Assembly (NCBI GenBank): GCA_964428805.1
Contig: CAYRZF010000002.1
Location: 1 to 63,610 of the forward strand
DNA from: an uncultured bacterium
GTDB taxonomy: Bacteria; Methylomirabilota; Methylomirabilia; Rokubacteriales; CSP1-6
Direction of reading: 5' to 3'
DNA: 63,610 nucleotides
Below the pieces are notes generated by a model that had not been told where the DNA came from, did no database searches, and was given only the letters and a program-made list of their open reading frames with translations. Made by a program: the position numbers and the translations under genes. Of this stretch, positions 26,592-42,810 are shown in pieces (within the stretch, counting starts at the first letter, position 1; every line of letters starts with the position of its first letter).

Positions 26592-27485
26592 ATGGATGTG
26601 AGACAGCTGGAAATCTTCGTCAGGGTGGCGGAGCTGGGCTCCTTCTCCAAGGCCGCCGGGGCGCTCTTCCTGACCCAGCCGACCGTGTCGGAGCGCATCC
26701 GTGGGCTGGAGGAGGAGCTCGGGATCCGCCTGCTCGACCGCCTCGGGCGCGGCGCGGTCCCGACGAGAGCCGGGCAGTTGCTTCTCGGTTACGCCCAGCG
26801 AATCCTCGAGCTTCACCGGGAGGCGCGCCAGGCCCTCGATCGGTTCCAGGGGCGCATGAGCGGGGAGCTGGTGGTGGGCGCCAGCACGATCCCCGGCGAG
26901 TATGTGCTCCCGGCGCTGATCGGGCGCTTCAAGGAAAAGTACCCGGACATCGCGATCTCGCTCCTCATCGGGGATAGCCAGGGGGTGGTGGACTGGGTCC
27001 TTGAGGGACGGGTGGAGCTGGGTGTGGTGGGGGCACAGATCAACCACCGGGCCCTCGACTATCGCGAACTGATGCCGGACGAGCTCGTGGTGGTGGTGTC
27101 CGCCGGCCACCCCTGGCACGGGAAGAAAAGCACGACCCTTGAAGAAGTCCGAGCGGAACCGCTGATCGTGAGGGAGCGGGGGTCGGGTTCGCGCCACACG
27201 CTCGAGCGGGCTCTCGCCGAGGTGGGGCTCGATCTGGGCGCCTTTCGTGTGGTCGGGGAGATGGGCTCGACGCAGGCGATCAAGCAGGCGGTCAAGGCTG
27301 GGGTCGGGATTTCATTGATCTCCAAGCGGGCCGTGGCGGAGGAGTGCCAGCACGGGATTCTCTACTGCGTGAAGGTGAAGGACCTCCGCTTCAGTCGCGC
27401 GTTCTATCTCGTCGTCAACACCACCCGCACCCGATCGCCGTTGGCCGAGGCCTTTCTGGCATTTCTTCTGGCCGAGTCCCCGTAG
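26592..27485 (+). CDS. LysR family transcriptional regulator located directly upstream of selD
   Basis: 297 aa. wHTH FVRVAELGSFSKAAGALFLTQPTVSERIRGLEEELG plus an effector domain. Confidence 0.9.
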   Translation: MDVRQLEIFVRVAELGSFSKAAGALFLTQPTVSERIRGLEEELGIRLLDRLGRGAVPTRAGQLLLGYAQRILELHREARQALDRFQGRMSGELVVGASTIPGEYVLPALIGRFKEKYPDIAISLLIGDSQGVVDWVLEGRVELGVVGAQINHRALDYRELMPDELVVVVSAGHPWHGKKSTTLEEVRAEPLIVRERGSGSRHTLERALAEVGLDLGAFRVVGEMGSTQAIKQAVKAGVGISLISKRAVAEECQHGILYCVKVKDLRFSRAFYLVVNTTRTRSPLAEAFLAFLLAESP

Positions 27486-27564
27486 GCACCGGGGTCTTCC
27501 CTGAATCCAGCGTGTTCGCCGCCGCGTCGAAAGAGGGAAACGAGTGGAAGGGAGGTGACCGCCC

Positions 27565-28644
27565 GTGGCTGACGCGAAGCTGACCGACCCGGCCTCCGGC
27601 AAGCAGATTCGACTGACCAGCTATGCCGCCTGTGCCGGTTGAGCCTCAAAGATGGGGCCGGGCGAGCTCCACGACGTGCTGAGCAGCCTCAAACGCCAGA
27701 CGCACCCCGATCTCCTGGTGGGTCTGGCGAAGAGTGACGACGCCGCCGTCTATCGCGTCACGGACGAGATCGCCATCGTGGAGACCGTGGATTTCTTCCC
27801 TCCCATCGTGGACGACCCGTATACCTACGGAGCGATCGCGGCGGCCAACTCCATGTCGGACGTCTACGCCATGGGCGGGCAGGTGCTCTTCGCCCTCAAC
27901 GTGGCCGGCTTCCCGCGCGAATTCCCCAAAGAGGTCATCGCCGAGATCTTTCGCGGGGGCGCCGAGAAGGTCGCCGAAGGGGGCGGTGTGGTGGCGGGGG
28001 GGCACACTGTGGTGGACGCTGAGCCGAAGTACGGTCTCTGCGTCACCGGGCGCGTTCACCCGGGAAAGATCTTCCTCAAAGGTGGCCTCCGGGCCGGGGA
28101 CCGGTTGTTCCTGTCCAAGCCGTTGGGGACGGGGGCCATCGCCACCGCCGCCAAGGAGGACGCGTGCGCTCCCGAGGTGCTCCAGGGGGCTGTGCAGAGC
28201 ATGCTGAGGCTGAACCGCGTGGCCGCGGAGGTCGCTCAGGAGCTGGAGGTTCGCGGGGCGACCGACATCACCGGCTTTGGCCTGCTGGGCCATGCGGCCG
28301 AGATGGTCGAGGCTTCCGGGGCGGGGATCCTGATCCGCGCTTCGAAACTTCCGCTGTTGGAGGGCGCGCTCCCCCTGGCAGAGAAAGGTCACCTGAGCGG
28401 CGGCATGAAGCGAAACCGCCGGCACCTCGAGTCAACCCTCGGGGCCAAGGGACAACTCAAGATTGACGCGTCGCTCCCCGCCGCCCTGACGAGCCTGCTC
28501 TTCGAGTCTGAGACCTCGGGCGGGCTTCTCTTCGCCGTTCCCCCCGATCGCGCCGGGCTCGTGATCGAAGGCTTCAAGAAGCGTGGCGAGCCCTGCTGGG
28601 AGATCGGCGAGGTGACCACGGAGCCGACTATCCGCATCGTCTAG
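27565..28644 (+). CDS. selD: selenide, water dikinase (selenophosphate synthetase), selenocysteine-containing; UGA at 27640-27642 read as Sec
   Basis: The track ORF (27652-28644) carries the AIR-synthase-like SelD body. The same frame upstream reads GTG27565-ADAKLTDPASGKQIRLTSYAACAG-TGA-ASK-M27652. GGAGG lies 9 nt before the GTG, and the next upstream stop is at 27556. Confidence 0.8.
27661..27688 (+). promoter_or_regulatory. candidate bacterial SECIS stem-loop of selD
   Basis: GGC/GA/GCUCCAC-GAC-GUG/CU/GAGC/A/GCC begins 19 nt after the UGA. Folded by eye only. Confidence 0.3.
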
Positions 28645-28811
28645 TAAGCGGCCCAACTAACTCCAGTAGCTCCGCGCCCAAACCGTTCCGATCGAGGTTT
28701 TCTATTCCCGCTGCCGCGTTCCATCGGGGATACCGATTTGTGTTCTCGGCGAATCTCTATACGATGAAGGGGCGTCTCAACAGCGAGCTCAACTTCGACT
28801 TGGGGGACCCA

Positions 28812-29672
28812 ATGCGCAGACTCATAGGGATTTTACTGCTCACGCTGCTCGGCATCGCCCCTGTCGCCCAGGCGGGGGACGTCCCGGAGGTCCTTAGGGT
28901 CTCGGCGATCCCCGACGAGAACCCCAACGAGCTGCTTCGGATCTACACGCCGTTCGCCGAGTACCTGGCGAAGCAACTCCACATGAAGGTGAAGTTCACG
29001 CCGGTGGTGGACTACCCCGCAACGGTGGAAGGACTCGCGGCGAAGAAGCTGGACCTGGTGTGGTACGGCGGGTTCACCTCCGTGCAAGCCGTGAGGCGGA
29101 CCAACGGAACGGCTCGACGCCTGGTGCTCCGGCAGGAGGACGCCGAGTTCAAGTCGGTGTTCGTCGCCCGGCCGGGCTCCGGGATCAACTCCCTCGCCGA
29201 TCTCAAAGGAAAAACGTTCTCCTTCGGGTCGGTCTCGTCCACCTCCGGCCACCTCATGCCCCGCTCCTTCCTCCTCAAGGCGGGCCTCAACCCCGAGCGG
29301 GACTTCAAACAGCTCGCCTACTCTGGGGCCCACGACGCCACGGCGCTGTGGGTGGAGTCGGGCAAGGTGGACGCCGGTGCCCTGAACTTCCTCGTCTGGG
29401 ACAAGCTCGTGCAGACAAAGAAAGTCGATCTCGCGAAGGTTAACGTCTTCTGGACCACGCCGCCCTACGTGGATTACGTCTGGACGGCGCGGGGCGACCT
29501 GGACAAGGGGCTCCAGGAGAAAATCACCGCCGCATTTCTGAAGCTCGATTACCAGAACCCCGAGCACAAGAAACTCCTCGATCTGCATCGAACCAAGAGG
29601 TACATCGCGGCCACCGACGAGGACTGGAAGGGGATCGAGGAGGCGGCGGTCGCCGCGGGCCTCCTCAAGTAG
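28812..29672 (+). CDS. PhnD-family ABC transporter substrate-binding protein (phosphonate/oxyanion type; selD-linked)
   Basis: ATG 28812 gives signal peptide MRRLIGILLLTLLGIAPVAQA. Motifs: LRVSAIPDENP, LDLVWYGGFTSVQA, FSFGSVSSTSGHLMPR, YSGAHDATA. Confidence 0.8.
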   Translation: MRRLIGILLLTLLGIAPVAQAGDVPEVLRVSAIPDENPNELLRIYTPFAEYLAKQLHMKVKFTPVVDYPATVEGLAAKKLDLVWYGGFTSVQAVRRTNGTARRLVLRQEDAEFKSVFVARPGSGINSLADLKGKTFSFGSVSSTSGHLMPRSFLLKAGLNPERDFKQLAYSGAHDATALWVESGKVDAGALNFLVWDKLVQTKKVDLAKVNVFWTTPPYVDYVWTARGDLDKGLQEKITAAFLKLDYQNPEHKKLLDLHRTKRYIAATDEDWKGIEEAAVAAGLLK

Positions 29673-29674
29673 CC

Positions 29675-30487
29675 GTGTTCGAACTGGAAAACGTCCGGAA
29701 GGTCTTCAGCGATGGCACCGTGGCCGTTGACGGCATTTCCCTCGCCGTCGGGCGCGGGGAGCATGTGGCGTTCATCGGGCCCAGCGGCGCCGGCAAGACC
29801 ACGCTATTCCGGCTGCTCAATCTCACGCTCCGTCCCACCTCCGGCATCCTGCGCCTGGACGGACAGGACGTGGCATCCATGTCGGACGCAGCCCTCCGGA
29901 ACAGGCGGCGCCGGATCGGAACGATCTACCAGCAACACAACCTGGTGGGACGGCTCCGCGTCGTCCACAACGTCCTGGCCGGGAACCTCGGTCGCTGGTC
30001 CGCCCTGAAGGCCGTCGCGTCGCTCGTCCGGCCCCAGTCCCCCGACGACGCCCAGCGGGCGCTGGCCCAGGTGGGGATGCCGGAGAAGCTCTACGCGCGG
30101 ACCGACGAGCTATCGGGCGGCCAGCAGCAGCGCGTGGCGATCGCCCGGGTGCTCGTCCAGGCCCCGGACATCATCCTGGCCGACGAGCCGGTGTCTTCGG
30201 TGGATCCCTCGCTAGCGGTGTCCATCGTGACGCTCCTCCGGGACCTGTCGGCGGAGTCCCGCAAAACCTTGGTGATGAATCTCCACAGCGTGGATCTGGC
30301 CCTCGCCCACTTTCCCCGCATCATCGGCATCCAGGACGGGCGCATCCTGTTCGATCTCGCGCCGGACAAAGTCAGCGCGGATCTCCTTTCCACGCTGTAC
30401 ACCGGCCATGAGGACGAGGAGCCCCAGCGTGACCGATTCAACGAGATCCTTCCGGTCAGCGGGGTCTGTCGGCCGCTTCGCCGGTAA
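29675..30487 (+). CDS. PhnC-type ABC transporter ATP-binding protein
   Basis: Walker A GPSGAGKTT, signature LSGGQQQRVAIARV, Walker B IILADEP. Confidence 0.85.
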   Translation: MFELENVRKVFSDGTVAVDGISLAVGRGEHVAFIGPSGAGKTTLFRLLNLTLRPTSGILRLDGQDVASMSDAALRNRRRRIGTIYQQHNLVGRLRVVHNVLAGNLGRWSALKAVASLVRPQSPDDAQRALAQVGMPEKLYARTDELSGGQQQRVAIARVLVQAPDIILADEPVSSVDPSLAVSIVTLLRDLSAESRKTLVMNLHSVDLALAHFPRIIGIQDGRILFDLAPDKVSADLLSTLYTGHEDEEPQRDRFNEILPVSGVCRPLRR

Positions 30488-31301
30488 GTCCGCCTTCGGC
30501 GTCATCTTCGCCCTGCTGTTCCTTCTCACCCTCGGGGCGAGCCTGCGCCTGGCCCAGGTAGACCCGCGCCTGCTCTTCGAGCGGGAGGCGCTCCACAACC
30601 TGGCAAGATTCATTGGCGGGATGTTCCCGCCCAATCTCTCCCGGTCCTTCCTGGCGTTGATGGCGCGGCCCGTCCTGGAAACGATCCAGATCTCGGTGAT
30701 GGGGACGGCCATCGCGGTGCTGATCGGGGCTCCGCTCGGGCTCCTCGCCACGGGATCCCTCAGCTGGAGCGGCGTCCTCCACGAGCGGCGAACGGCCGGT
30801 GGCCGGTGGCTGCTCGGTTTCGTCCCGTACGCGCTGGCCCGCCTCCTCCTTTCCGTGTTCCGGTCGATCCCCGAGTTCGTGTGGGCCTTCATGTTCGTGC
30901 GGGCGGTGGGGCTCGGGCCGTTCCCGGGCGTCCTGGCAATCGGTGTCGCCTATGGCGGAATGCTCGGCAAGGTGTACTCGGAGATCCTTGAGGGCGTGAA
31001 CCCCCAGCCCCTCGAAGCTCTGCACGCGGGCGGAGCCTCCAAGCTTGGGATCGCGCTCTACGGATTCCTGCCACAGGCGCTTCCGAATGTCGTTTCGTAC
31101 ACCCTGTACCGCTGGGAGTGCGCGATCCGCGCCTCGGCGATCCTCGGGTTCGTCGGGGCGGGCGGTCTGGGTCAGCAGCTGGAGCTCTCCATGCGGATGT
31201 TCCAGTTCGACGAAGTGCTCACGATCCTGGGACTTCTCTTTCTGCTGGTCGCCGGCGTGGACTTCGTGAGCGGGAAGATCCGGGCTCAGGTGGTGCGGTG
31301 A
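30408..31301 (+). CDS. PhnE-type ABC transporter permease 1
   Basis: EALHAGGASKLGIALYGFLPQALPNVVSYTLYRWECAIRASAILGFVGAGGLG. The start is uncertain (ATG 30408 or GTG 30429, overlapping phnC). Confidence 0.8.
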   Translation: MRTRSPSVTDSTRSFRSAGSVGRFAGKSAFGVIFALLFLLTLGASLRLAQVDPRLLFEREALHNLARFIGGMFPPNLSRSFLALMARPVLETIQISVMGTAIAVLIGAPLGLLATGSLSWSGVLHERRTAGGRWLLGFVPYALARLLLSVFRSIPEFVWAFMFVRAVGLGPFPGVLAIGVAYGGMLGKVYSEILEGVNPQPLEALHAGGASKLGIALYGFLPQALPNVVSYTLYRWECAIRASAILGFVGAGGLGQQLELSMRMFQFDEVLTILGLLFLLVAGVDFVSGKIRAQVVR

Positions 31302-32134
31302 TGGCTGAGGGCCGACGGCTGCGATGGCCTGGGCTCACGTTGACCGCCGGATTCGCTCTGCTGCTCGTTTGGAGCTACCACGGGACCCAGGTGGACCTGG
31401 CCGCGCTTTTCGGGAGCGAGGGACGGAGCCAGATCGCCACCTATATCGAGAAACTCTTCCCGCCCGACCTGTCGAGGAAGACCCTCGTGGATGCGGGCAT
31501 GGGCGCAGTGGAAACCTTCGCTATTTCCTTCGTGGGCTCGCTCCTCGCTGTCGTGCTGGCGCTTCCGCTCGCGGTGCTGACCACCCGGACCCTCCTCTAT
31601 CGCGGGATCCTCTACGAGGGACGGCGCCTGGGACCGGTGTCGAAAGGCATCCGGGTGGGGATTTACGTGATCGCGAAGGCTGTTCTGAACGTCCTCAGGA
31701 CGATTCCCGAGATCGTGTGGGCGCTGATCTTCGTCTTCCTGGTGGGACTCGGACCGTTCCCCGGCGTCCTGGCGCTTGGGTTCCACACCGGCGGGGTGCT
31801 CGGTAAACTCTTCGGCGAAGTACTCGAGGATGTGAATCCGCGCCCGCTCGAGGCGCTGGGGAGCGCCGGCGCCGGTCGGCTGGCGATCCTGTTCTACGGG
31901 GTGCTCCCCCAGGCCGCTCCCCAGTGTCTCTCCTATGCCCTCTATCGGTGGGAGGTGAACATCCGAGCGGCAGCCATTCTGGGGTTCGTCGGGGCGGGGG
32001 GCCTGGGTCAGCGAATCTACATCGCGATCAACCTCTTTCTGGAGAACGAACTGCTGACGCTGATCCTCGCGATCTATGTCATGGTGACGCTGGTAGACGC
32101 CCTGAGCGCCTATTTGAGGCGGCGACTCCTCTGA
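31301..32134 (+). CDS. PhnE-type ABC transporter permease 2
   Basis: ATG 31301 overlaps the preceding stop (TGATG). EALGSAGAGRLAILFYGVLPQAAPQCLSYALYRWEVNIRAAAILGFVGAGGLG. Confidence 0.8.
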   Translation: MAEGRRLRWPGLTLTAGFALLLVWSYHGTQVDLAALFGSEGRSQIATYIEKLFPPDLSRKTLVDAGMGAVETFAISFVGSLLAVVLALPLAVLTTRTLLYRGILYEGRRLGPVSKGIRVGIYVIAKAVLNVLRTIPEIVWALIFVFLVGLGPFPGVLALGFHTGGVLGKLFGEVLEDVNPRPLEALGSAGAGRLAILFYGVLPQAAPQCLSYALYRWEVNIRAAAILGFVGAGGLGQRIYIAINLFLENELLTLILAIYVMVTLVDALSAYLRRRLL

Positions 32135-32152
32135 CCCCCAAAGGGCCCGGCG

Positions 32153-32404
32153 CTAAGGGACGTTCCGCTTCCGGAGAAAGGAGAGCAGCCGATCCTTGAG
32201 CTCCGGGGGGATGTCAGTCTCTTTGAGCTGGCGGGCGGCCTTGACCGTGCCTTTGTAGGTATTCAGGAAGGCGATGCAGGGGGCGCATCCCTCCAGGTGA
32301 GCCCGGAGGTTCTTTGCGGTAGCGGGGTCGAGGCTGCCGTCGAGGTAGTCGGCCAAGAGGTCGACAATCTCCCGACATCCTGGCGCGGAGCGAGCCTTTG
32401 CCAT
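32153..32404 (-). CDS. small soluble zf-HC2 (anti-sigma/RsrA-like) protein
   Basis: The 378-aa track ORF is trimmed to ATG 32404. 83 aa with the HLEGCAPC (HxxxCxxC) motif, no TM segment, and no sigma gene adjacent. Confidence 0.65.
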   Translation of the reverse strand: MAKARSAPGCREIVDLLADYLDGSLDPATAKNLRAHLEGCAPCIAFLNTYKGTVKAARQLKETDIPPELKDRLLSFLRKRNVP

Positions 32405-32539
32405 CCCACCCTCCGATTCGTCCCGAACTTCCATCACCGTAGCACGGGTCGCCGAAATTCGGCAACGCCACTCCCGGGGAATGATCCCACGTCTTGGGAT
32501 GTTTTCAGCGTGAGGAGGATTCGCCATGGCCCAAGTAGA

Positions 32540-33781
32540 ATGGGGGCGATGGCTTTCTTTCATCGCCCCTTCGTTCTGCTTTTTGCTCTCATCGTTCTGC
32601 TTTTCTCCTCGGGGGGCGAGGCGCAGAAGCGGTGGTCGGAGGCCGAGCAGCTCGACTTTCTCCGCCGCCACTGGTCGCGTCCTATCCCGCGCCAGGGGAA
32701 GCCGCCGGCCCGTTTCACCCCGCTGGAGGCTTCGCTCCTGCCGGAGAGCTGCGGGAGCTGTCATCCCGCCCAACTCGCGGACTGGAGGGAGAGTCGGCAC
32801 GCGAAGAGCATGGGCCCTGGAGTGCAAGGGCAGCTGGTGGAGATGCTCGGCACCGATCCGGATTCGGCGCTCGGCTGCTACGCCTGCCACGCGCCGCTGA
32901 CGGAACAGCAGGAGAAAGTGCGGAGGCGCCAGGGGGGGCTCGCCCCCAATCCGGTGTTCGACGCCCAGCTGCAGGCGCGCGGGCTCGCGTGCGCGGCCTG
33001 CCACCTGCGCGGTCACGAGCACTTCGCACCGCCGAAGCGCGACGGGTCGCTTCTGAGCGAGCTGCCGCGGGAACGCCTTCCTCACAATGGGGCGACGCGG
33101 ACGCCCGCCTTCCTGCGGGCGGAGTTCTGCAAAGACTGCCACCAGTTCCCGCCCGATGGCTTTGCCCTGAACGGCAAGCTCCTGGAGAACACCTACGAGG
33201 AGTGGAGGGCGAGCCCGTTCGGCCGCTCCGGAGTCCAGTGCCAGGATTGCCACATGCCCGACCGCCGACATCTCTGGGGCGGGATCCATGATGCCCAGAT
33301 GGTCCGTTCCGGGGTGAGCGTGGATCTTTCAGTGGACGGGGAGTCGCATCGGGTCGGCGACACCGTTTCGGCAACGCTCACGATCACCAACAGCAAGGTC
33401 GGGCATTATTTTCCGACGTACGTGACCCCCCGGGTGGTGGTCTCGGGGGAACTAGTGGACGGGTCCGGTCAGGCGGTCGCCGGAAGTCGACAGGAGAAGG
33501 TCATCGCGCGAGAGGTGGCCCTGGACCTCTCGCGGGAACTTTTCGACACGCGGCTCGCGCCACGACAGAGCCTGACCTTTCGCTACCGGCACAGACTCTC
33601 CGCGGTCGGCCTCAGGTTGCGGCTCGCCGTCACCGTCTACCCGGATCACTTTTACGTCAGCTTCTTTGAGTCCCTCCTGGCCAGCGGGGCGGGGAAGGGC
33701 ACCGCCCAGGTCCGGGAGGCTCTCGAGGCCGCCCGAAGTTCGTCCTTTACCATCTATTCCCACGAAATCCCCCTGACCTGA
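32540..33781 (+). CDS. secreted pentahaem c-type cytochrome with a non-haem C-terminal domain
   Basis: Signal peptide MGAMAFFHRPFVLLFALIVLLFSSGGEA. Five CxxCH motifs: CGSCH, CYACH, CAACH, CKDCH, CQDCH. About 170 C-terminal residues carry no haem motif. Confidence 0.8.
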   Translation: MGAMAFFHRPFVLLFALIVLLFSSGGEAQKRWSEAEQLDFLRRHWSRPIPRQGKPPARFTPLEASLLPESCGSCHPAQLADWRESRHAKSMGPGVQGQLVEMLGTDPDSALGCYACHAPLTEQQEKVRRRQGGLAPNPVFDAQLQARGLACAACHLRGHEHFAPPKRDGSLLSELPRERLPHNGATRTPAFLRAEFCKDCHQFPPDGFALNGKLLENTYEEWRASPFGRSGVQCQDCHMPDRRHLWGGIHDAQMVRSGVSVDLSVDGESHRVGDTVSATLTITNSKVGHYFPTYVTPRVVVSGELVDGSGQAVAGSRQEKVIAREVALDLSRELFDTRLAPRQSLTFRYRHRLSAVGLRLRLAVTVYPDHFYVSFFESLLASGAGKGTAQVREALEAARSSSFTIYSHEIPLT

Positions 33782-33876
33782 CTGACGACGGTGCGCCGGG
33801 CCGCCCTCCCGACGCTCGGGTGCCGGCATCGCACGATTGCGGGCGCGCGCGGCGGCGTGTACTCTGGATCAGCCTT

Positions 33877-34941
33877 ATGCGTCTTGCCCTCTTGACCCCC
33901 TTCGACTTCCCCTCGGTCCGCGGCAATGCCATCACCGTGAATCGGATCGTGCGCGGCCTTCGCGAGCGCGGGGTGGAACTGAATGTCTGGGACTGCTCGG
34001 TGATCTCTGACACCCAGGTGGGACGCGAGGTCGAAACGTATCGCCCCGCGCTGATTCACGCCTTCCACGCGTTCCGCGTCGGGCCCCTGGCTCTCAGGCT
34101 GGCCCGGAAACTGGAGGTTCCGCTACTCGTGACCATCACCGGCACCGACGGCAACCACGATCTCTTTGATCCCGACCGGGCGCAAACGGTCCGGCGGGTC
34201 CTCGAAGGAGCCTCGGCCGTCACGGTCTTCCACGAGAGCATGCTGACGAAAATCTCGAAAACCCTCCCCGACCTCACCGTCAAGATGGTGGTGATTCCCC
34301 AGAGCGCCTGGCTCGAAGAGGGCCCCCCCTATCCGCTCGCCGACCGGCTCAGCCTCACGCCGGATACCGTCATCTTTCTCTTCCCGGCGGGGATCCGGAT
34401 GGTCAAGAACCCGCTCTTCCCCCTCGCTTCCTTTGACCGGCTCGTGTCCCGCTTTCCCCACCTTCGACTCGTCTACGCCGGTCCGATTCTCGATCCCGGG
34501 GAGGGGGAGCACCTGCTGCGGGCGCTGGCAGGGCGGCCGTGGGCGGCTTACCTGGGGGCGGTGCCTCACAGGCAGATGCGGTCGCTCCTGGAGGCGTGTG
34601 ATGTCGTGCTCAATTGTTCCCTGTCGGAGGGAGGCATGGCCAACTCCGTCCTCGAGGCCATGGCGTGTGGTCTTCCGGTCCTGGCTTCAGACATCGAGGG
34701 AAATCGCTCCCTCGTCGAGGATGGCGTCACAGGATTCCTCTTCAACGGGCCTGAGGAGTTCGAGGCCAAGGCAATCCGGCTCCTGGGCGATCCCGGGCTC
34801 AGAAGATGGTTCGGGCTGCTGGGGCAGACCCGCGTGCGTGCCCTCTACTCCCGCGAGCGAGAGGTGGAAGGTTACCTTGCCCAATACCATCGGCTGGTGC
34901 CGGCCCCGTCGGCCGGCGACTTTCTCCTCCGCGGTGGCTAG
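33877..34941 (+). CDS. GT-B (GT4-like) glycosyltransferase; possible SenB-like selenosugar synthase by context only
   Basis: ATG 33877 (MRLALLTPFDFPSVRGNAITVNRIV). TITGTD segment. C-terminal SLSEGGMANSVLEAMACGLPVLASDIEGNRSLVEDGVTGFLF. Confidence 0.8.
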   Translation: MRLALLTPFDFPSVRGNAITVNRIVRGLRERGVELNVWDCSVISDTQVGREVETYRPALIHAFHAFRVGPLALRLARKLEVPLLVTITGTDGNHDLFDPDRAQTVRRVLEGASAVTVFHESMLTKISKTLPDLTVKMVVIPQSAWLEEGPPYPLADRLSLTPDTVIFLFPAGIRMVKNPLFPLASFDRLVSRFPHLRLVYAGPILDPGEGEHLLRALAGRPWAAYLGAVPHRQMRSLLEACDVVLNCSLSEGGMANSVLEAMACGLPVLASDIEGNRSLVEDGVTGFLFNGPEEFEAKAIRLLGDPGLRRWFGLLGQTRVRALYSREREVEGYLAQYHRLVPAPSAGDFLLRGG

Positions 34942-35034: not shown

Positions 35035-36051
35035 ATGATGGGGAATGCTGAACGGGTCCGGGAGTTCGTTGAGGCATTCGGGAGCCTCAAGGCCGAAGTC
35101 CAGAAGATCATCGTCGGTTACGACACGGTCATCAGCGACGTTCTTGCTGGTCTCTTTGCCGGAGGGCACATTCTGCTCGAGGGAGTGCCGGGTCTCGGCA
35201 AGACCCTCTTGATCAAGACGCTAGCCGAGGGCCTCGAGCTCTCGTTCTCCCGTATCCAGTTCACCCCCGACCTCATGCCCGCCGACATTATCGGTACGAA
35301 CATCATCCTGGAGGACGCCGAGGGTCGGAGACACTTCCAGTTCCAGCGGGGACCGATCTTCGGCCACATCCTCCTCGCCGACGAGGTGAACCGGGCCACC
35401 CCCAAGACCCAGTCGGCGCTCCTGGAAGGAATGCAGGAGGGGACCGTCACCGTGTCGGGGGCTTCGCACCTGCTGCCGTCTCCGTTCTTCGTCCTCGCTA
35501 CCCAGAATCCAATCGAGATGGAGGGGACCTACCCTCTTCCCGAGGCCCAGCTCGACCGGTTTCTCTTCAAGCTACGGGTGACGTACCCGGCGCTGGACGA
35601 GCTGAATGAGATCATTGACCGGACGACCCGATCCGGCGTGGCGGAGGTCCGGCGTGTCATGACCGGTCCCGAGGTGTTGCGCTTCCGGGAGCTGGTTCGG
35701 GAGGTTCCCATCGCCGCCCACGTGCGGGAACTGGCTTCGCTGATCGTCATGGCCACCCACCCCACGTGGGAGCACTCTCCCGACGTCACGCGCCGCTTCG
35801 TCCGGTACGGGTCGAGTCCGCGGGGCGCCCAGGCGCTGGTGCTGGGCGGCAAGGTCCGCGCCCTCGCCGAGGGTCGCTATAACGTGAGCCTGGAGGATCT
35901 GCGGGCGGTTGCCCAGCCGGCGCTCCGGCATCGAATCATCCTCAACTTCGAGGGCGAAGCGGAGGGCGTGGACGTGGACACCCTGATCGGGCAAGTCCTC
36001 GAACAGGCGGAGGCTCAGAGCCGTCAGGGCAAGGAAGTGTTTTTGCGGTAG
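35035..36051 (+). CDS. MoxR-family AAA+ ATPase
   Basis: GHILLEGVPGLGKT (Walker A), LLADEVNRATPKTQSALLEGMQE, ATQNPIEMEGTYPLPEAQLDRF. Confidence 0.9.
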   Translation: MMGNAERVREFVEAFGSLKAEVQKIIVGYDTVISDVLAGLFAGGHILLEGVPGLGKTLLIKTLAEGLELSFSRIQFTPDLMPADIIGTNIILEDAEGRRHFQFQRGPIFGHILLADEVNRATPKTQSALLEGMQEGTVTVSGASHLLPSPFFVLATQNPIEMEGTYPLPEAQLDRFLFKLRVTYPALDELNEIIDRTTRSGVAEVRRVMTGPEVLRFRELVREVPIAAHVRELASLIVMATHPTWEHSPDVTRRFVRYGSSPRGAQALVLGGKVRALAEGRYNVSLEDLRAVAQPALRHRIILNFEGEAEGVDVDTLIGQVLEQAEAQSRQGKEVFLR

Positions 36052-36071: not shown

Positions 36072-37520
36072 ATGACGGATTCGGGCGTCCTCGAGCGTCT
36101 TGTCGATCAGGTCGGCTGGCAGATCAGGAAGCGACGCGCGGAGTTCTACGGGCTCCGCGGGCTATTCTACGGCGCATGCCTCGGCCTGGTCCCGCTTCTC
36201 CTGAAAGAGGCCATCGGTCCCGTAGCCCCGCTCATTGCTCTCGGGCTGGCCCTGGTCGGCGCCACGGCGGGCGCCCTGGTCGGATTTTGGCTCAGGCTCT
36301 CCCGGCAGGACGTCGCGCGCATCGCGGATCGGGCTTTCGATCTTCGAGATAGGGTCGCGACGGCCCTCGAGTGGAGAAGCCGGCCCGACCGGAGTCCCCT
36401 GGTTGACCTCCTGGTGGCGGATGTGGTGGGCCGCATCGAGGGCCTCGACGGCCGCCACGCCACGCGCCGGATCCTTCCCCCGGAGCTAAGACTCCTCCCG
36501 CTCCCGGTCTTCCTGCTGGTCGTCGTTGCCTTGGCCCCGGCGATTCCGCTTCCAACCGGGAGACTCCCCACATTTTCGTCGGGCGAGGATTCCGAGACCC
36601 CGGAAGAGCGCGAAGCGAAGATCCTCGCCGAGGAACGATCGACGGCGGCCAAGCGGGAGCCGCTCCAGCGCGCCGAGTTGCTGGAGCGGAACGTCGCCGT
36701 CCGGCAGGGCGGGACCGGCAGCAGCCAACCTGGGGATCTCTCGGCCCTATTCAAAGATACCGCTCTCGCGGCCCAGCGCCCGGACTTCAACAGCTTTCTG
36801 AAGAAAGGCGATGAGCGGCTTCGGATGCTCGAGCAGGTTGACCGCCTCCCCGACCTGAAGCGCGACTTCACCCAGAGCCCGTACAAGATGGTCTTCCAGA
36901 AGAAGAAGGAACTGTTCGGAGGTCTTCGCCCGGATCAGCTCTCCCCTCAGAAACTCCGTGAGCTGCTCGAGGAGATGGATCGAATGGGGCGCAAGGGCGG
37001 TAACTGGGGCGGGGACACCTGGGAGGGGCTCGAAGCCCTGGAACAGGGGCAGACCGACCGCGCTCTGGAGGCCATGGAGAAAGCGCTCTCCAAGATGCGC
37101 GCGATGGAGGAACGGGGGCGGGGTGGGCGCGGGCTCCGGGGCGGTCGCGAGGAGGATCGCCGGGGCGCTCGCGGCCGGGACCGGGGCGCGGGAGGGGACA
37201 GCATCGAGGCCGACCTCGGCGAGGGCGAGGGACTGTTGCCGGGGAAGGGGCGGAACCCGAACCCCAAGGGCGATGCCACGGAGCGCCTCCGCGCCACTCC
37301 CTATGATGCCGGCGTGGAGGGGGAATCCCGCTCCGGCAGAAAAGAGGGCCACGACACCAACCTCCTCGGCAAAGGTGGGCGTCTTCCGTCGCGGCTGCAA
37401 TACATGGGCGTGTTCGGTCAATACCGGAAGATGATGGAGGAGGCCTTGGCGCGGGAGCAGGTGCCTCGGGACTATCAGACGCAGGTGAAGGAGTACTTCG
37501 ACTCGCTGGAGGAGAGATAA
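36072..37520 (+). CDS. hypothetical membrane protein with a charged low-complexity C-terminal half (MoxR-operon associated)
   Basis: 482 aa. Two N-terminal TM helices plus a third near residue 145, then Arg/Gly/Glu/Asp-rich segments (RGGRGLRGGREEDRRGARGRDRGAGGD). Ends VPRDYQTQVKEYFDSLEER. Confidence 0.6.
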   Translation: MTDSGVLERLVDQVGWQIRKRRAEFYGLRGLFYGACLGLVPLLLKEAIGPVAPLIALGLALVGATAGALVGFWLRLSRQDVARIADRAFDLRDRVATALEWRSRPDRSPLVDLLVADVVGRIEGLDGRHATRRILPPELRLLPLPVFLLVVVALAPAIPLPTGRLPTFSSGEDSETPEEREAKILAEERSTAAKREPLQRAELLERNVAVRQGGTGSSQPGDLSALFKDTALAAQRPDFNSFLKKGDERLRMLEQVDRLPDLKRDFTQSPYKMVFQKKKELFGGLRPDQLSPQKLRELLEEMDRMGRKGGNWGGDTWEGLEALEQGQTDRALEAMEKALSKMRAMEERGRGGRGLRGGREEDRRGARGRDRGAGGDSIEADLGEGEGLLPGKGRNPNPKGDATERLRATPYDAGVEGESRSGRKEGHDTNLLGKGGRLPSRLQYMGVFGQYRKMMEEALAREQVPRDYQTQVKEYFDSLEER

Positions 37521-37525
37521 GGCCG

Positions 37526-38416
37526 GTGGCCGCGGCGCGGGCGCAGGACTTCTTCACCCGCGAGTTCCTGACCCAGCTGGAGCGGCTTGCCCTGGCCTCC
37601 AGGCGGACCTTCCGGGGCCGGGTCAAGGGGGAGCGCAAGAGCCCTCACCGCGGGAGCAGCGTGGAGTTCGTGGACTACCGCCCGTACGGGGTGGGGGACG
37701 ACCTCCGCTACGTGGACTGGAACATCTTCGGCCGCCTCGATCGGCTCTACGTGAAGCTTTTCGTCGACGAAGAAGACCTCTGCCTGCACCTGCTGCTGGA
37801 CGCCTCAGCCTCGATGGACTACGGGGAGCCCACGAAGCTTCAGTACGGAGCCCGGCTGGCTGCGGCCCTCGGCTTCGTGGCGCTCGTGAATCATGAGCGC
37901 GTGGGGGTCGGCATCTTGAGGGAACGGGTCACGGAGGGGTGGTCGTCGGCCCGCGGGCGAGCCCAGGTTCTCCCGCTCCTGGGCTTCCTGGCGAAGCTGC
38001 GCGCGGCGGGCGCCACGGGGCTGAGCGACGGCCTTGCCAGCTATGCCCGGACGTCTCGGGACCCCGGACTTGCGGTTCTGATTTCCGACCTTTTGGATCC
38101 GGGCGGATACGAAGCGGGGCTCCGGGCCCTTCAGGAACGACGCTTCGATGTCCACGTGATTCATCTGTTGTCGCCGGAAGAGATGAACCCCTCGTTCACC
38201 GGGGACCTTCGCCTGAAGGATTCCGAAACCGGGGAGACCCGGGAGCTCACGTTCGACGGTGAAGCGTCTCGGAACTACCGCCGCCGGCTTCACGCGTTTC
38301 TCGATGGGGCCGAGGCGTTCTGCCGTTCCCGCGAGATCAGTTATCACCGTGTGACCACCGACATCCCGCTGGACGGGTTCGTGCTGCGACAGCTCAAGGG
38401 ACTCCTGCTCGTATGA
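37526..38416 (+). CDS. DUF58 (vWA-like) protein, MoxR partner
   Basis: GSSVEFVDYRPYGVGDDLRYVDWN, LLLDASASMDYG. Confidence 0.85.
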   Translation: MAAARAQDFFTREFLTQLERLALASRRTFRGRVKGERKSPHRGSSVEFVDYRPYGVGDDLRYVDWNIFGRLDRLYVKLFVDEEDLCLHLLLDASASMDYGEPTKLQYGARLAAALGFVALVNHERVGVGILRERVTEGWSSARGRAQVLPLLGFLAKLRAAGATGLSDGLASYARTSRDPGLAVLISDLLDPGGYEAGLRALQERRFDVHVIHLLSPEEMNPSFTGDLRLKDSETGETRELTFDGEASRNYRRRLHAFLDGAEAFCRSREISYHRVTTDIPLDGFVLRQLKGLLLV

Positions 38417-41400
38417 GCTTCCTCTCCCCGCTGGCCTTCCTGCTCCTGGGCCTGGCCGTTCCGCTCCTGCTCCTGTACTTCCTCAAGGTACGGCGGCACG
38501 AGCGGCGCGTCCCCAGCCTCCTCCTTTGGGATCCTGCGCTCCGAGACCGCGAAGCCTCGGACTTTTTTCAGCGCCTCCAACGCGATCCGCTGCTGCTCCT
38601 GCAGCTCCTGGCGCTTCTGGCCTTGACGGTGGCGCTGGCGCGGCCCGTCGTAACGGTGGAGGGCCGGGGGGCTCAGCGGACAGTCCTGATTCTGGACATC
38701 TCGGCCTCCATGAAGGCCACCGATGTTCTCCCCTCGCGCTTTGCCGCGGCCCAGCGGGAGGCGCTGGCGTTCCTCGAGCGGCTCCCCTCCGGCGCCGAGG
38801 TGATGCTGATCGAGGCGGGAATCCAGCCTCGCGTCCTGGTCCCCTTCTCCCGTGATCGGCAGCGGCTCACCGCCGCCCTGGGAGCCCTCGAGGCACGCGA
38901 CCTTCCCAATCGGTTGAATGAAGCCCTCCGCACGGCCCGGGCCCTGACCGCTCAAGATCCCCGCGCCGGCATTCGCATCTTCACCGACGGTGCCCATCCG
39001 ACCGCGGTCGGAGATGGCGGCGGTGACCCGCGCGTCCACTGGCTGGGAGTCGGGCGGCGGGGCCGGAATGTCGCGATCACCAATCTGGCGCTGCGAAAGA
39101 CGTTCTTCGGCGCGTTTGGGTATCAGGCGTTTGTCTCGGTGGTCAACTTCTCCGACGAACCTCAGTCGTTCACCTTCACGGTGGACTTGGACGATCGGCC
39201 GATCGCGGAGCAATCCCTCACCCTGGACCCACACGTGCGTCGATCGGTGATGCTTCCGTTCAGCCACCAGGGCGCTGGTGTCGTGCGGGTCCGCCTGAAC
39301 ATCGCCGACGACCTCGGCGCCGACAACGTGGCGTACGCCATCATCCCCCCGCCGCGCGAGATGCGGGTGCTGCTGGTGAGTCCCGGCAACCTATTCCTTG
39401 AGAAAGTCCTGAGGGCCGATGCCCAAGTCAAGCTCGAGGTCCGCACGGCGGAGGCCTATCAAGGGGGGATGGAGTCCTTCGACGTCGTGGTGCTGGACAG
39501 CGTGAGCCCGGCTAGGATTGGGGCCGGCCGGTACGTCCTCATCAACACGATCCCGCCCGATGTCCCGCTGGAGAATCTGGGCCGGGCCGCGCAGCCGGTC
39601 ATCATGGACTGGGACCGGTCGCACCCGATCATGCGATACGTGGACTTTTCCAAGGTGGTTATCGAGGAAGCGCTCCGGGTTCGTCCGTTGGCCGCGGGTA
39701 AGACCCTGGTGGAGGCGATCGGTGGGCCGCTGATCTACGGTTTGGAGGAACCACGGCGCAAAGCGATCTTTTTCGGGTTCGACCTGTTCAAGACGGATCT
39801 TCCCCTTCGTGTGGCCTTTCCGCTCATCCTCTCCAACGGGCTCCGCTGGCTTCACCCGGCCGGCCTCGATCTGACGAGCTTCCAGCTTCAGGCGGGACAG
39901 CCGATTCTCCTCCCGGTGGAGCATGGCGTCACCGCTGCCAGGGTGATCACCCCGTCGGGGCGGAGCGTGGAGGCCCAGGTCACGCGCGGGCTTGCGAGCT
40001 TCGCCGACACCGGTCAGGTGGGAGTGTACACCGTGGTGACCTCCCGCGGAGAGGCCCGGGTCGCCGTAAACCTCACGAGTGCCGAGGAGTCGGACATCGC
40101 CCCTCGGCCGATCCCGACGCGGTCGGAGGCCCCTTCATCCGACGGCATGACCGTGCCGCTTCAGCGCGAACTCTGGGGGTTGTTCGCCCTGCTGGCCGCG
40201 GTCCTCCTCCTGGTCGAGGGGTTTCTCTATTGGCGTCGCCAAACCGCGGGGAGGCTCGTGCTTCCACGCGGCCCCGGAGATCGGTGGGCTCTCGGGCTCC
40301 GCTGCGTTCTGGTGGTCTTCCTGTTGACGGCGCTTCTGCGTCCTGTGGTGCCGCGCTGGGTGGACAGGCTGAACGTGGTGTTTCTCCTCGACGTGTCCGA
40401 CAGCGTCACCCTGGCTGCCCGGGAAAACGCATACCGCTTCGCGGTCCAGGCCCTGACCGGGATGCAGGAAGGCGATCAGGTGGGGCTCCTCGTGTTTGGC
40501 GAGGCGGCGGCGGTGGCCCAGCCGTTGAGCGCCAAGCCGAAGCTGGACCGCCCCCAGGTCGACGTGCGGGGGCGGGGGACCGACCTCGCCCAGGCCATCC
40601 AACTGGCGCTGGCGACGCTGCCGGCGCGCCACGCCAACCGTCTCGTCCTGCTCACGGACGGTCGCCAGAACAAGGGTAGCGCCTTGGCGGTTGCGCAGGC
40701 GGCCAAGGACGCAGGAGCCGACATTCACTACGCCCCCACGTCGTTGACCTTCGCCCAGGAGGTGGTGGTCGAGGCCATGCTCCTTCCGCAGGAGGTGAAG
40801 TTCGGGGAGCCGTTTGACGCGAAGGTCGTGGCCTGGAGCCAGCAAGACACCCAGGGACGGCTCTCGCTCTTTCGCAACGGGGAGTTCCTGGGGTCTCAGG
40901 TGGTGCGGCTTTCCGCCGGCAAGAACGTTTTCACCTATCGCCAGTCGCTGGAGCGGAACGGGATTCACGTCTACCAGGCGGCCGTCGAGGCCGACGGGGA
41001 CACGATCGAGGAGAATAACCGGGCCGTCGGGACCGTGGTAGTCCGAGGCCGGCCCCATGTCCTGCTGGCGGAGAAGGAGCGGGCGCATGCGCAGGCCTTG
41101 AGCGCGGCGCTCCGTGCCCAGCACATCGACGTGGAGGTGATGGAGCCGGAGCGGATTCCCAGGGACCTGGCGGGGCTCCAGAAATACGATGGCTTGATCC
41201 TTTCGAACGTCTCCTCACTCAAGCTCACGAAGAAACAGATGGAGAACATCCGCGACTACGTGCGGGACTACGGCGGCGGGCTCATCATGGTGGGCGGAGA
41301 GGAAAGCTTCGGTCTGGGGGGCTACTACCGCACGCCGATCGAGGAAGCACTGCCCGTCACCATGGAGGTGAAGCAGCGGCTCGAGATCCCCAGCCTCGCT

Positions 41401-42810
41401 GTCGTTCTGTCCATCGATCGGTCGGGCTCCATGGCCATGTCCACCGATGAGAGGGTCACGAAGCTCGACATCGCGAAGGAAGCGGCGCACCTGGTGGTGG
41501 ACCTCCTGGACGAACGAAACGAGGTGGGGGTGATGAGCTGGGACACCGAGTTCGTTTGGGACGTCTCCATGCAGGCCGCACGGGACAAGAATGCCATCCA
41601 CCGCGCCGTCGCCACGATCAAAGCGGGCGGTGGCACAGACGGGTATCCGGCGCTGAAGGACGCGTACCGGGCCCTCTTCGACCGTCCGGCCCTGCTCAAG
41701 CATGTCATCTTCATGTCTGACGGCCAGATGACGCGCGGGGACTTTGCGGGCCTCATTCGCCGCATGGCGAAGGACAAGATCACCGTATCATCCGTCGCCA
41801 TCGGCAAAGATGCCGACGCTCAACTGATGTTGGACATCGCCAAGTGGGGGCGTGGCCGGTTCTACTACACCGAGGACACGCAGACCATTCCTCGGATCTT
41901 TACGCTCGAGACCCAGCTGGCCTCCAAGGCCTCGCTGATCGAACATCCCTTCAAGCCGGCCGTGTCCGGTGCGAGTCACGAAGTGCTCCAGGACATCGAC
42001 TGGAAGAATGCCCCTCCGCTGGGTGGGTACGTGGCTACCACGCTCAAAGGCACCGCGGAGCAGCTGCTCATGACCCACCAGGAAGATCCGCTCCTGGCCA
42101 CGTGGCGGTACGGTTTGGGACGGACCGCGGCATTCACCTCGGATGCCAAGGGAAAGTGGGCCGTCCTCTGGCTTCGTTGGGGTGCCTTTAACAAGTTCTG
42201 GGGGCAACTCACGCGCTGGTCGCTTCGCACGGGGAGCCGGAGTGATACCGTGGCGACCGTGGAACGGCGTGATGGAGTGGGGGAGGTGACGGTCGAGGCC
42301 GTCGATCCCAAGGGTGAATTCATCAACTTCCTGGAGACTCAGGTCGGCGTCGTGGCTCCGGACAAGCAGCGGTCGGTGGTCGATCTGGAGCAGGTGGCCC
42401 CGGGCCGGTACCGGGGCCGGTTCCCCGCTCCCGAGGAGGGTATCTACCTGGTGGGAATGGCCCAGCGCCGGGGCGAGAAGATGGTTGGCTCGCAGCTGGC
42501 GGGGTTGGTGGTACCGTATGCTAAGGAGTTCAGGGATCTCGGTGTGGACGAAACGCTGCTGCGAGAGTTGGCGGAGCTCACCGGCGGGGGGGCTGTCGCG
42601 CAGCCGAAGGATGTGTTCCTTAAGGCCCGACGGCGCTCGCGGCTCTCGGTTGAGCTCTGGCCCTGGCTTGTCGGCTGCGCGGCGCTGTTGCTGCTGCCGG
42701 AGGTCGCGCTGAGACGGATCGGCCCCAGACTGTTCACGCGCCTCCGCGGGCGGTTTCGGCACCCGCCGGGCGGCGGCGGTAACCCCCCGGATGCGAGGAT
42801 GTCACCGTGA
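38413..42810 (+). CDS. giant BatA-N / triple vWA / GATase1-like membrane protein
   Basis: 1465 aa. The BatA N-terminal double-TM signature (LAFLLLGLAVPLLLLYFLKVRR..PSLLLW). Three vWA MIDAS-type starts (LILDISASM, FLLDVSDSV, LSIDRSGSM). ThuA/GATase-like segments (YDGLILSNV, GGGLIMVGG). Internal and C-terminal TM helices. Confidence 0.8.
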   Translation: MSFLSPLAFLLLGLAVPLLLLYFLKVRRHERRVPSLLLWDPALRDREASDFFQRLQRDPLLLLQLLALLALTVALARPVVTVEGRGAQRTVLILDISASMKATDVLPSRFAAAQREALAFLERLPSGAEVMLIEAGIQPRVLVPFSRDRQRLTAALGALEARDLPNRLNEALRTARALTAQDPRAGIRIFTDGAHPTAVGDGGGDPRVHWLGVGRRGRNVAITNLALRKTFFGAFGYQAFVSVVNFSDEPQSFTFTVDLDDRPIAEQSLTLDPHVRRSVMLPFSHQGAGVVRVRLNIADDLGADNVAYAIIPPPREMRVLLVSPGNLFLEKVLRADAQVKLEVRTAEAYQGGMESFDVVVLDSVSPARIGAGRYVLINTIPPDVPLENLGRAAQPVIMDWDRSHPIMRYVDFSKVVIEEALRVRPLAAGKTLVEAIGGPLIYGLEEPRRKAIFFGFDLFKTDLPLRVAFPLILSNGLRWLHPAGLDLTSFQLQAGQPILLPVEHGVTAARVITPSGRSVEAQVTRGLASFADTGQVGVYTVVTSRGEARVAVNLTSAEESDIAPRPIPTRSEAPSSDGMTVPLQRELWGLFALLAAVLLLVEGFLYWRRQTAGRLVLPRGPGDRWALGLRCVLVVFLLTALLRPVVPRWVDRLNVVFLLDVSDSVTLAARENAYRFAVQALTGMQEGDQVGLLVFGEAAAVAQPLSAKPKLDRPQVDVRGRGTDLAQAIQLALATLPARHANRLVLLTDGRQNKGSALAVAQAAKDAGADIHYAPTSLTFAQEVVVEAMLLPQEVKFGEPFDAKVVAWSQQDTQGRLSLFRNGEFLGSQVVRLSAGKNVFTYRQSLERNGIHVYQAAVEADGDTIEENNRAVGTVVVRGRPHVLLAEKERAHAQALSAALRAQHIDVEVMEPERIPRDLAGLQKYDGLILSNVSSLKLTKKQMENIRDYVRDYGGGLIMVGGEESFGLGGYYRTPIEEALPVTMEVKQRLEIPSLAVVLSIDRSGSMAMSTDERVTKLDIAKEAAHLVVDLLDERNEVGVMSWDTEFVWDVSMQAARDKNAIHRAVATIKAGGGTDGYPALKDAYRALFDRPALLKHVIFMSDGQMTRGDFAGLIRRMAKDKITVSSVAIGKDADAQLMLDIAKWGRGRFYYTEDTQTIPRIFTLETQLASKASLIEHPFKPAVSGASHEVLQDIDWKNAPPLGGYVATTLKGTAEQLLMTHQEDPLLATWRYGLGRTAAFTSDAKGKWAVLWLRWGAFNKFWGQLTRWSLRTGSRSDTVATVERRDGVGEVTVEAVDPKGEFINFLETQVGVVAPDKQRSVVDLEQVAPGRYRGRFPAPEEGIYLVGMAQRRGEKMVGSQLAGLVVPYAKEFRDLGVDETLLRELAELTGGGAVAQPKDVFLKARRRSRLSVELWPWLVGCAALLLLPEVALRRIGPRLFTRLRGRFRHPPGGGGNPPDARMSP

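Follow-up and report, generated by a model that had tools for sequence, protein, structure and literature searches.

Does a selenophosphate synthetase gene (selD) that lies among genes for an importer, a multihaem cytochrome and a glycosyltransferase, with no classical selenium-utilisation gene nearby, signal an undescribed selenium system? The question is raised by an 8.3-kb block within a 63,610-nucleotide stretch of DNA (contig CAYRZF010000002.1 of assembly GCA_964428805.1; 63.6 kb, G+C content ~65%, hereafter the window) from an uncultured bacterium of the Rokubacteriales in the phylum Methylomirabilota. The block holds a LysR regulator, selD, a PhnD/C/E/E-type ATP-binding cassette (ABC) importer, a zinc-finger protein of 83 amino acids (aa), a secreted pentahaem cytochrome and a compact glycosyltransferase. 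An earlier, sequence-only reading had described these genes, all of which are real and lie where it placed them, and had proposed that they form a single module for oxyanion uptake, periplasmic redox handling and selenophosphate-dependent glycosyl chemistry. The analysis reported here leads to a different view. The block is probably a mosaic of three independent units, which occur together because a ~20-kb region of the Rokubacteria is syntenic, and which include one selenium-specific part. That part, the first unit, would consist of a LysR_Se-type regulator, a SelD that contains selenocysteine (Sec), and a variable cargo slot occupied here by a PhnD1-like importer. The second unit would be the small zinc-finger protein, which is RsrA-like and whose gene diverges from that of the transferase. 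The third would be the compact transferase itself, a member of glycosyltransferase family 4 (GT4) that probably acts on a small anionic acceptor, together with the Bat-like MoxR-DUF58-BatA/VWA-TPR operon before which it stands. The selenium part (regulator, SelD and importer) is a kind of set that has already been predicted, and the locus does not represent a new selenium system.

Gene order across related loci

Related loci (n = 113, designated by L numbers) were anchored on the transferase and came from 80 species representatives (GTDB genomes), from contigs reached through exact-protein look-ups and from Rokubacteria loci found in a metagenome scan; only loci with sufficient flanking sequence entered the synteny counts. 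The commonest order is also the minimal one and comprises LysR and SelD, a zf-HC2 gene on the opposite strand, and the transferase followed by MoxR, a protein of unknown function, DUF58, BatA/VWA and TPR. SelD is found upstream of the transferase, 1.5-8 kb away, in 47/52 loci, and MoxR lies at most 4 kb downstream of it in 85/92, making MoxR its most constant partner. It might be supposed that so regular an association between selD and a transferase reflects a common function. The genes upstream of LysR, which served as controls, are nevertheless equally fixed in position, with the homoserine kinase ThrB present in 35/35 loci, a Zn-ribbon gene in 32/35 and DsbD in 27/35. Because housekeeping genes hold their places equally well, the adjacency of SelD and the transferase is no more informative about shared function than that of ThrB and SelD. 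Indeed, the ~20-kb region is syntenic across the Rokubacteria and the phylum.

In a single integrated module the importer would take up a selenium oxyanion, the cytochrome would handle a periplasmic step, and SelD and the transferase would make an organoselenium product. The full order LysR-SelD-ABC-zfHC2-cytochrome-transferase is indeed shared by a small number of close relatives (L010, L173, L171), but it is confined to one shallow clade in which the transferases are at least 66% identical. The importer binding protein occurs in 6/52 loci, as does the cytochrome, and the two vary independently of each other. The genes also lie on different strands or 95-167 nucleotides (nt) apart, with a promoter-like element kept before the transferase. 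Within the window the gaps are 79 nt between LysR and selD, 167 nt between selD and the binding-protein gene, and 2 nt between the latter and the ATPase gene, which overlaps that of permease 1. The two permease genes are spaced by -1 nt, permease 2 and zf-HC2 converge with 18 nt between them, zf-HC2 and the cytochrome gene diverge across 147 nt, and the cytochrome-transferase and transferase-MoxR gaps measure 95 and 93 nt, respectively. A scan for promoters and terminators across 26.4-35.3 kb gave nothing exceeding shuffle expectation. In loci L011-L015, in which the transferase is 69-80% identical, the transferase-MoxR pair is kept behind unrelated upstream genes, with no LysR, SelD or zf-HC2.

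The cytochrome gene (32552..33781, +) encodes a secreted c-type protein. Its five CxxCH motifs and an N-terminus resembling a signal peptide were read directly from the sequence, and it has a C-terminal beta-sandwich domain. Its model matches are weak and multihaem only, and against NF040886, the model of the multihaem (seleno)cytochrome ExtKL, it scores 42.2 bits, failing the cut-off of 250. The loci that carry it all belong to the shallow clade mentioned above. In other Rokubacteria, orthologues that are 65% identical have genes for a peptidase M1 and a Metal_resist protein as neighbours, and selD, the importer and the transferase are all missing from their surroundings. In the AlphaFold2 model the haem domain has a predicted local distance difference test score (pLDDT) below 50 and only the C-terminal beta-sandwich is reliable; the best Foldseek match of this low-confidence model, the pentahaem c552 of Thermochromatium tepidum (5ze8, E = 2.6e-8), offers a weak lead. 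The cytochrome is a lineage-specific insertion between zf-HC2 and the transferase without a demonstrable tie to selenium. Given these cytochrome orthologues, the scarcity of both importer and cytochrome, the uninformative selD-transferase adjacency and the failure of the transferase against the SenB model (see below), the single integrated module is very improbable, and we favour the mosaic.

Gene content also differs immediately upstream of the block. From dCTP deaminase to LysR (21312-26581) the window carries the alpha and beta subunits of an indolepyruvate:ferredoxin oxidoreductase and a membrane-anchored sulfite-oxidase-like molybdoenzyme; the equivalent positions in L001 and L173 hold only Pup and a Zn-ribbon gene, and the set looks like a local insertion.

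The regulator, SelD and the slot behind it

The LysR gene (26592..27485, +) encodes HTH_1 and LysR_substrate Pfam domains, and its product scores 319.5 bits against the curated model NF040786 (LysR_Sec_metab), above the cut-off of 250. In 46/52 related loci it immediately precedes selD. By model, domains and position it is a selenium metabolism-associated regulator of the LysR_Se or HrsM type, and its earlier assignment to a selenium-associated family stands. LysR_Se has been described as a selenium regulator, a role that has been verified in part (PMC9312934). A comparison of the LysR-selD and zf-HC2-transferase intergenic regions for a shared LysR box returned only promoter-like elements, before zf-HC2 and before the transferase, the LysR-selD spacing being too short for such a search in most relatives (~30 nt; extracted median 47 nt including 15-nt flanks). 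A second LysR gene in the window (10543-11472, -), which adjoins a methylisocitrate-lyase-like gene, likewise has the selenium-LysR as its best model, at 170.7 bits, well below the cut-off of 250.

SelD (27565..28644, +) scores 354.6 bits against TIGR00476 (cut-off 125) and is itself a selenoprotein. An in-frame TGA codon (27640-27642) lies within the motif ..YAACAG-U-ASKMGPGEL, where the N-terminal Gly-rich loop carries its catalytic Sec or Cys. Related loci keep both this codon and the frame leading up to it in ~55/56 cases, and a search for further genes with in-frame TGA codons left this as the sole credible example in the window. In the relatives, a hairpin with an 8-bp stem and a GAUC loop follows the UGA at a distance of 14 nt; 89.5% of cells are paired, two pairs are compensatory, and the values lie above all 500 shuffles and all slid controls. 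The corresponding region of the window (27656..27675, +), which comparative folding of the relatives marks as resembling a Sec insertion sequence (SECIS), is a degenerate copy that pairs weakly, its single-sequence fold being no better than shuffles, and the hairpin is weaker in the window's own clade. An Rfam scan of the window gave zero family matches, and hence no annotated SECIS or riboswitch, and no transfer RNA (tRNA) genes were found in the window.

Models of selA, selB, selU, yqeB, yqeC and senA/egtB had no match among the ~60 open reading frames (ORFs) of the window that were scanned. This agrees with the sequence-only reading, which had seen here a selD without a utilisation trait. 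The premise is weak, however, as the synthesis of a Sec-containing SelD requires Sec decoding by selA, selB and selC. Because SelD is itself made with Sec, these genes must lie elsewhere in the genome. The proposal that an orphan SelD points to a new trait was rejected, since a Sec-containing SelD presupposes the Sec-decoding machinery, and the absence of 'classical' selenium genes nearby is the normal situation rather than the sign of an orphan trait. SelD would convert selenide to selenophosphate, which would feed the synthesis of Sec-tRNA through the selA, selB and selC encoded elsewhere. Further along, at 46908-56024, the window carries a complete iron-sulfur cluster (ISC) operon (IscR, IscS, IscU, IscA, HscB, HscA, Fdx), followed by a second pair, NifS-NifU, together with CysE. 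Delivery of selenium to SelD by cysteine desulfurases of the IscS type is established in Escherichia coli (IscS/CsdB).

Between selD and zf-HC2 lies a slot whose content varies. An ABC importer occupies it in the window and in L010, L020, L032, L041, L051, L070, L076 and L173; a PF03773 permease is found there in L001, L002, L005, L006 and L016, and a redoxin with a transglutaminase in L004, and in many loci the slot is empty. The PF03773 (ArsP_1/YraQ-type) permease of these close relatives has a conserved in-frame TGA within '..SVPSMM-U-TCCAAPVAL..', at 7115-7117 of L002 in a gene (6734-7801) that gene callers break into pieces of 127 and 221 aa. No named NCBIfam family matches it, the closest being the SO_0444 Cu/Zn efflux family at 51 bits, and its sequence marks it as a candidate Sec-containing permease.

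In the window the slot is filled by a periplasmic binding protein (28812..29672, +), a PhnC-like ATPase (29675..30487, +; 254.7 bits against TIGR02315, cut-off 266) and two PhnE-like permeases (30408..31301, + and 31301..32134, +; 229.2 and 245.8 bits against TIGR01097, cut-off 216.7). The ORFs and model matches bear out the co-directional run of LysR, selD and PhnD/C/E/E importer (28812-32134) that had been described. The binding protein, a TIGR04553/PhnD1-type binder of XO3/XO4 oxyanions, scores 338.1 bits against TIGR04553 (cut-off 250) and fails the E. coli-type PhnD model TIGR03431 (176.7 bits, cut-off 261); its close relatives are named 'putative selenate ABC transporter substrate-binding protein' by NCBI. 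The cargo of the importer would be an oxyanion of tetrahedral or trigonal shape, most probably selenate or selenite, and cytoplasmic thiols may then reduce this to the selenide used by SelD.

It could also be proposed that the cassette is a PhnD1-type importer of phosphite or phosphate (or methylphosphonate) whose place after selD is incidental. Among solved structures the binding protein is indeed closest to two PhnD1 proteins of picocyanobacteria, 7s6g (45% identity, E = 1e-60) and 5lq5 (42%), and in a HMMER alignment it retains all of the ligand-contacting residues of PhnD1 (D11, Y44, T65, S123-S126, H156, N174, D203 and Y204; list from PMC10284923). PhnD1 binds phosphite with a micromolar or sub-micromolar dissociation constant and phosphate and methylphosphonate more weakly, and has been proposed to act as a constitutive phosphate transporter (PMC10284923). 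As controls, 7s6g and 5lq5 pass TIGR04553 as well, at 333 and 299 bits, and PtxB (161 bits) fails. Because these phosphite/phosphate-binding PhnD1 proteins pass the same model, TIGR04553 membership does not separate selenium from phosphorus ligands. The binding protein therefore does belong to the family regarded as selenium-associated, but that family also holds phosphite/phosphate PhnD1 proteins; the possibility, raised earlier, that it might fall in a phosphonate/phosphite clade is to this extent realised. Our literature search yielded no experimental report of selenate binding by TIGR04553-type proteins. Furthermore, an importer cassette that is 81% identical occurs in L175 (9001-12384) in a metal-resistance neighbourhood (MerR, HMA, P-type ATPase, DUF302, methyltransferase and 1-Cys peroxiredoxin genes), with no selD within 9 kb, and the cassette therefore moves between loci. 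Against an incidental placement is the observation that, wherever the cassette adjoins the transferase region in Rokubacteria, it always sits in the slot right after selD, for which the alternative occupant is the candidate Sec-containing permease. The preprint on the discovery of selenoneine found a putative selenate transporter, of the same annotation, near many sen clusters in unrelated phyla, and neither ptxD nor the phn C-P lyase genes of phosphite/phosphonate catabolism were seen in the scans of the window. Selenite, a trioxo anion, moreover resembles phosphite in shape, and binding of the one may not preclude binding of the other. We consider it rather unlikely that the importer serves phosphorus uptake and lies behind selD by chance, and retain selenite or selenate as the probable cargo.

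The glycosyltransferase and its partners

The transferase gene (33877..34941, +; start set from relatives) had been described as standing alone in front of an unrelated MoxR operon. It is in fact the first gene of a MoxR-DUF58-BatA-TPR operon, an arrangement shared by the same 85/92 loci. The MoxR-type AAA+ ATPase (35035..36051, +), whose orthologues, 88-89% identical, carry PF07726 (AAA_3) and bpMoxR, is preceded by an AAGGAG Shine-Dalgarno sequence before its ATG at 35035. It is followed by a conserved 482-aa protein with no NCBIfam match (36072..37520, +) and a DUF58 protein (37526..38416, +; PF01882 in orthologues), both of which keep their position in relatives. A giant BatA/VWA protein (38413..42810, +) comes next, with PF07584 BatA and VWA domains in its orthologues and weak VWA-type NCBIfam matches of its own, and then a TPR protein (42807..44174, +) with TPR-family matches and an orthologue bearing TPR Pfam domains.

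On its other side the transferase faces the small cytoplasmic zf-HC2 protein (32153..32404, -; 83 aa, PF13490 E = 2e-13), which lies just upstream of it in divergent orientation in 70/83 loci. This protein has an HxxxCxxC motif and the C-H-C-C signature of zinc-binding anti-sigma (ZAS) proteins such as RsrA, and scores 41.1 bits against the RsrA model TIGR03988, failing the cut-off of 62.5. In relatives, the zf-HC2-transferase intergenic region measures ~130 nt and contains conserved promoter-like elements; a similar element is found 12 nt before the transferase ATG in the window, retained despite the insertion of the cytochrome gene. No sigma factor gene adjoins zf-HC2. In L173 (1372-2732) a pair comprising an extracytoplasmic function (ECF) sigma factor and a long zf-HC2 anti-sigma factor lies just upstream of Redoxin-DsbD genes, ~10 kb from the 83-aa protein, of which this sigma factor is a possible cognate; no such pair was found among the scanned ORFs at the equivalent position of the window, where the ORF coordinates apparently leave no room for one.

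The family to which the transferase is closest is NF038229, the uncharacterised 'GPMC system family 4 glycosyltransferase', although at 353.1 bits it remains below the cut-off of 400; our literature search for 'GPMC system' found no papers. SenB (TIGR04348) is second among NCBIfam families at 95.5 bits, and fails its cut-off of 300, as do BshA (TIGR03999; 62.2 bits, cut-off 273.7) and MshA (TIGR03449; 38.7 bits, cut-off 462.5). The same ranking is seen in relatives down to 46% identity, whose SenB scores are 88-102 bits. An exhaustive search places the transferase in a family of 330 clusters (50% identity) at E <=1e-30. Ten out of ten sampled representatives of this wider family have NF038229 first (239-394 bits) and nine have SenB second (70-114 bits), the representative P0249 giving no SenB match at E <=1e-15. 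The transferase most likely glycosylates a small anionic acceptor. Its neighbours in a Foldseek search with the AlphaFold2 model (pLDDT 88), namely GlgM, BshA, MshA and SenB (E ~1e-17 to 1e-19), are all GT4 enzymes with acceptors of this kind.

Among such acceptors, selenophosphate had been singled out by the earlier view of the gene as a selD-linked transferase of the SenB type. The enzyme would then be a selenosugar synthase that joins the selenophosphate of the neighbouring SelD to a sugar from a uridine diphosphate (UDP)-sugar, yielding a selenosugar or another selenium-containing low-molecular-weight glycoside; it would do so without SenA or OvsA, possibly under the control of LysR_Se and/or the RsrA-like ZAS protein, and would not require the cytochrome. 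A resemblance to SenB is certainly present. SenB structures are the best PDB sequence matches of the transferase (1.8e-13 to 5.7e-12), and every tested member of its clade has TIGR04348 in second place among NCBIfam families. Mutagenesis of SenB identified N20, T23, T83, T85, D86, R155, V157, K158, E231 and E239 as important residues (PMC10891094). The equivalents of all ten are invariant in the transferase; for N20, T23, T83, T85, D86, K158 and E231 these are N17, T20, T88, T90, D91, K177 and E251, invariant in alignment A1. At the positions that separate SenB from BshA (N17, T20 and T88) the transferase follows SenB. The SenB cut-off, however, is missed by a wide margin, and the SenB motif EGGAHV is lost, the window having SEGGMANSV and the H235 position being Asn in 102/127 sequences. 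The SenB pocket residues are, furthermore, near-invariant across 126 representatives of the wider family and thus not specific to the clades linked to selD. Neither does the fold discriminate, as the structural search does not separate SenB from BshA, MshA and GlgM, and a family-profile search returned RsSenB (1e-16) about level with BaBshA (1e-15), RsrA-type comparisons aside. The window encodes no EgtB/SenA-like protein, and selD lies 5.2 kb upstream of the transferase without overlap. The proximity of selD, no stronger than that of the housekeeping genes, is missing altogether in L011-L015. What survives of the earlier view is the likeness to SenB in model rank and pocket; the enzyme itself belongs with the NF038229-like family. 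Selenophosphate is accordingly a possible acceptor that the data do not indicate, a selenosugar synthase is unlikely, and there is only a slight chance that the GT4 clade of the Rokubacteria/Methylomirabilota constitutes a second, distinct family of selenophosphate-dependent Se-glycosyltransferases with a SenB-like pocket.

The same evidence may be read in favour of a BshA/MshA-like enzyme that acts on a small anionic acceptor to begin the synthesis of a low-molecular-weight thiol or a related glycoside, and that is paired with the RsrA-like protein rather than with selD. BshA and MshA are among the top structural neighbours, the (T/H)GTD and R-x-V-K motifs are common to BshA, and zf-HC2 is the divergent partner of the transferase in most loci. 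In actinomycetes, the RsrA/SigR system controls the mycothiol genes. In the clade closest to NF038229 (L086, 1170-3355, and L088-L138), a YdjC/HpnK-like sugar deacetylase gene overlaps the start of the GT4 gene, which parallels the pairing of BshA with BshB and MshA with MshB and recalls HpnI/HpnK; in L086 the deacetylase is fused to a GIY-YIG domain. This nearest named clade also bears on the selenosugar proposal, as ~50 of its loci contain no selD, LysR or MoxR, and selD is likewise missing from three other distant contexts of the transferase family. On the other side, both the BshA and MshA models failed, no YdjC-like deacetylase lies upstream of the transferase in the window or the Rokubacteria loci, the scans of the window turned up neither a deacetylase nor a Cys-ligase gene, zf-HC2 has no adjoining sigma factor, and L011-L015 keep the transferase but not zf-HC2. 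A BshA/MshA-like enzyme of this kind is therefore doubtful, although a role of that type, linked to the divergent RsrA-like protein, is no less plausible than one involving selenophosphate.

Several observations weigh against the mosaic of independent units, or against the selenium cargo assigned to its first unit. In Methylomirabilis (L078, L081, L082) the transferase is directly followed by a LysR_Sec_metab gene (309.6 bits), an arrangement suggesting that the transferase may after all be connected with selenium. The transferase of these loci is 46-48% identical and follows gatC-gatA-gatB (L081, 6267-8250), with no selD or MoxR nearby. The match of the transferase to SenB among solved structures, and its retention of the residues of the selenophosphate pocket, point in the same direction. 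For the importer, the PhnD1 controls and the copy in L175 have been described above; its assignment to selenium comes entirely from genomic context, and its ligand is putative. Finally, selA, selB and selC are placed elsewhere in the genome by what a Sec-containing SelD must have, the data covering the 63.6-kb contig alone.

Relation to known systems

The locus would provide routine selenium acquisition and activation in a phylum of uncultured soil and groundwater bacteria, with a binding protein that public annotation has already named. Its novelty lies in the SenB/BshA-like GT4 family, in the ligand of the TIGR04553/PhnD1 proteins and in the candidate Sec-containing permease of close relatives. 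TIGR04553 is a widespread transporter family whose 'putative selenate' name may mislead either way, and its ligand is also relevant to picocyanobacterial PhnD1, for whose high affinity for phosphite there is no physiological explanation. The transferase is a member of a large uncharacterised GT4 family located between SenB and BshA/MshA. Should it use selenophosphate after all, it would open a new selenometabolite pathway, the third by which selenium would enter small molecules.

The nearest characterised relative of the transferase in selenium metabolism is SenB of the senABC system (8fbx, 8jjn, 8jjq, 8k5u), with which it shares a compact GT-B/GT4 architecture, the GNxxT, TGTD, RxVK and E-G-G/E-x7-E positions and the catalytic lysine (K158 in SenB, K177 here), and in the window also a selD gene nearby. 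In contrast with SenB, it has only ~22-25% identity to that enzyme in structural alignment, has Asn in place of H235, lacks a companion senA/egtB-like gene and any overlap with selD, and has the MoxR operon as its conserved partner. With the NF038229 family it shares a similar length and the N-terminal motif GN(W/A)xT, whereas the clade nearest to that model forms a cassette of YdjC/HpnK-like deacetylase and transferase, unlike the window, and has no selD, LysR or MoxR. BshA and MshA have the same fold (template modelling score ~0.8), the HGTD/TGTD and R..K motifs and a small anionic acceptor, with a connection to redox-sensing ZAS proteins in actinomycetes; they differ in that both of their models failed and in that N17, T20 and T88 are SenB-like in the transferase.

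Downstream of the transferase, the series of domains is that of Bat-type operons (MoxR, DUF58, BatA/VWA, TPR). To our knowledge, the classical Bat operon includes neither a GT4 gene in front nor the extra 482-aa protein. The cytochrome shares five haems, a similar size and a weak sequence match with T. tepidum c552, but the identity is 20% over 222 columns and the haem-domain pLDDT in the model below 50.

The importer belongs to the same family as the picocyanobacterial PhnD1CE systems (7s6g, 5lq5), has their set of ligand residues and their PhnC/PhnE/PhnE architecture, and is 42-45% identical in its binding protein. PhnD1 binds phosphite tightest, whereas the copy in the window comes immediately after selD in a run headed by a LysR of the selenium type. 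It is with the known selD neighbourhoods that combine LysR_Se with a TIGR04553 importer that the first unit agrees most fully, in that regulator, SelD and binding protein belong to the same families. In the window these genes are co-directional and tightly spaced, and the locus differs from those neighbourhoods in that its SelD contains Sec and its importer is optional, being present in 6/52 loci.

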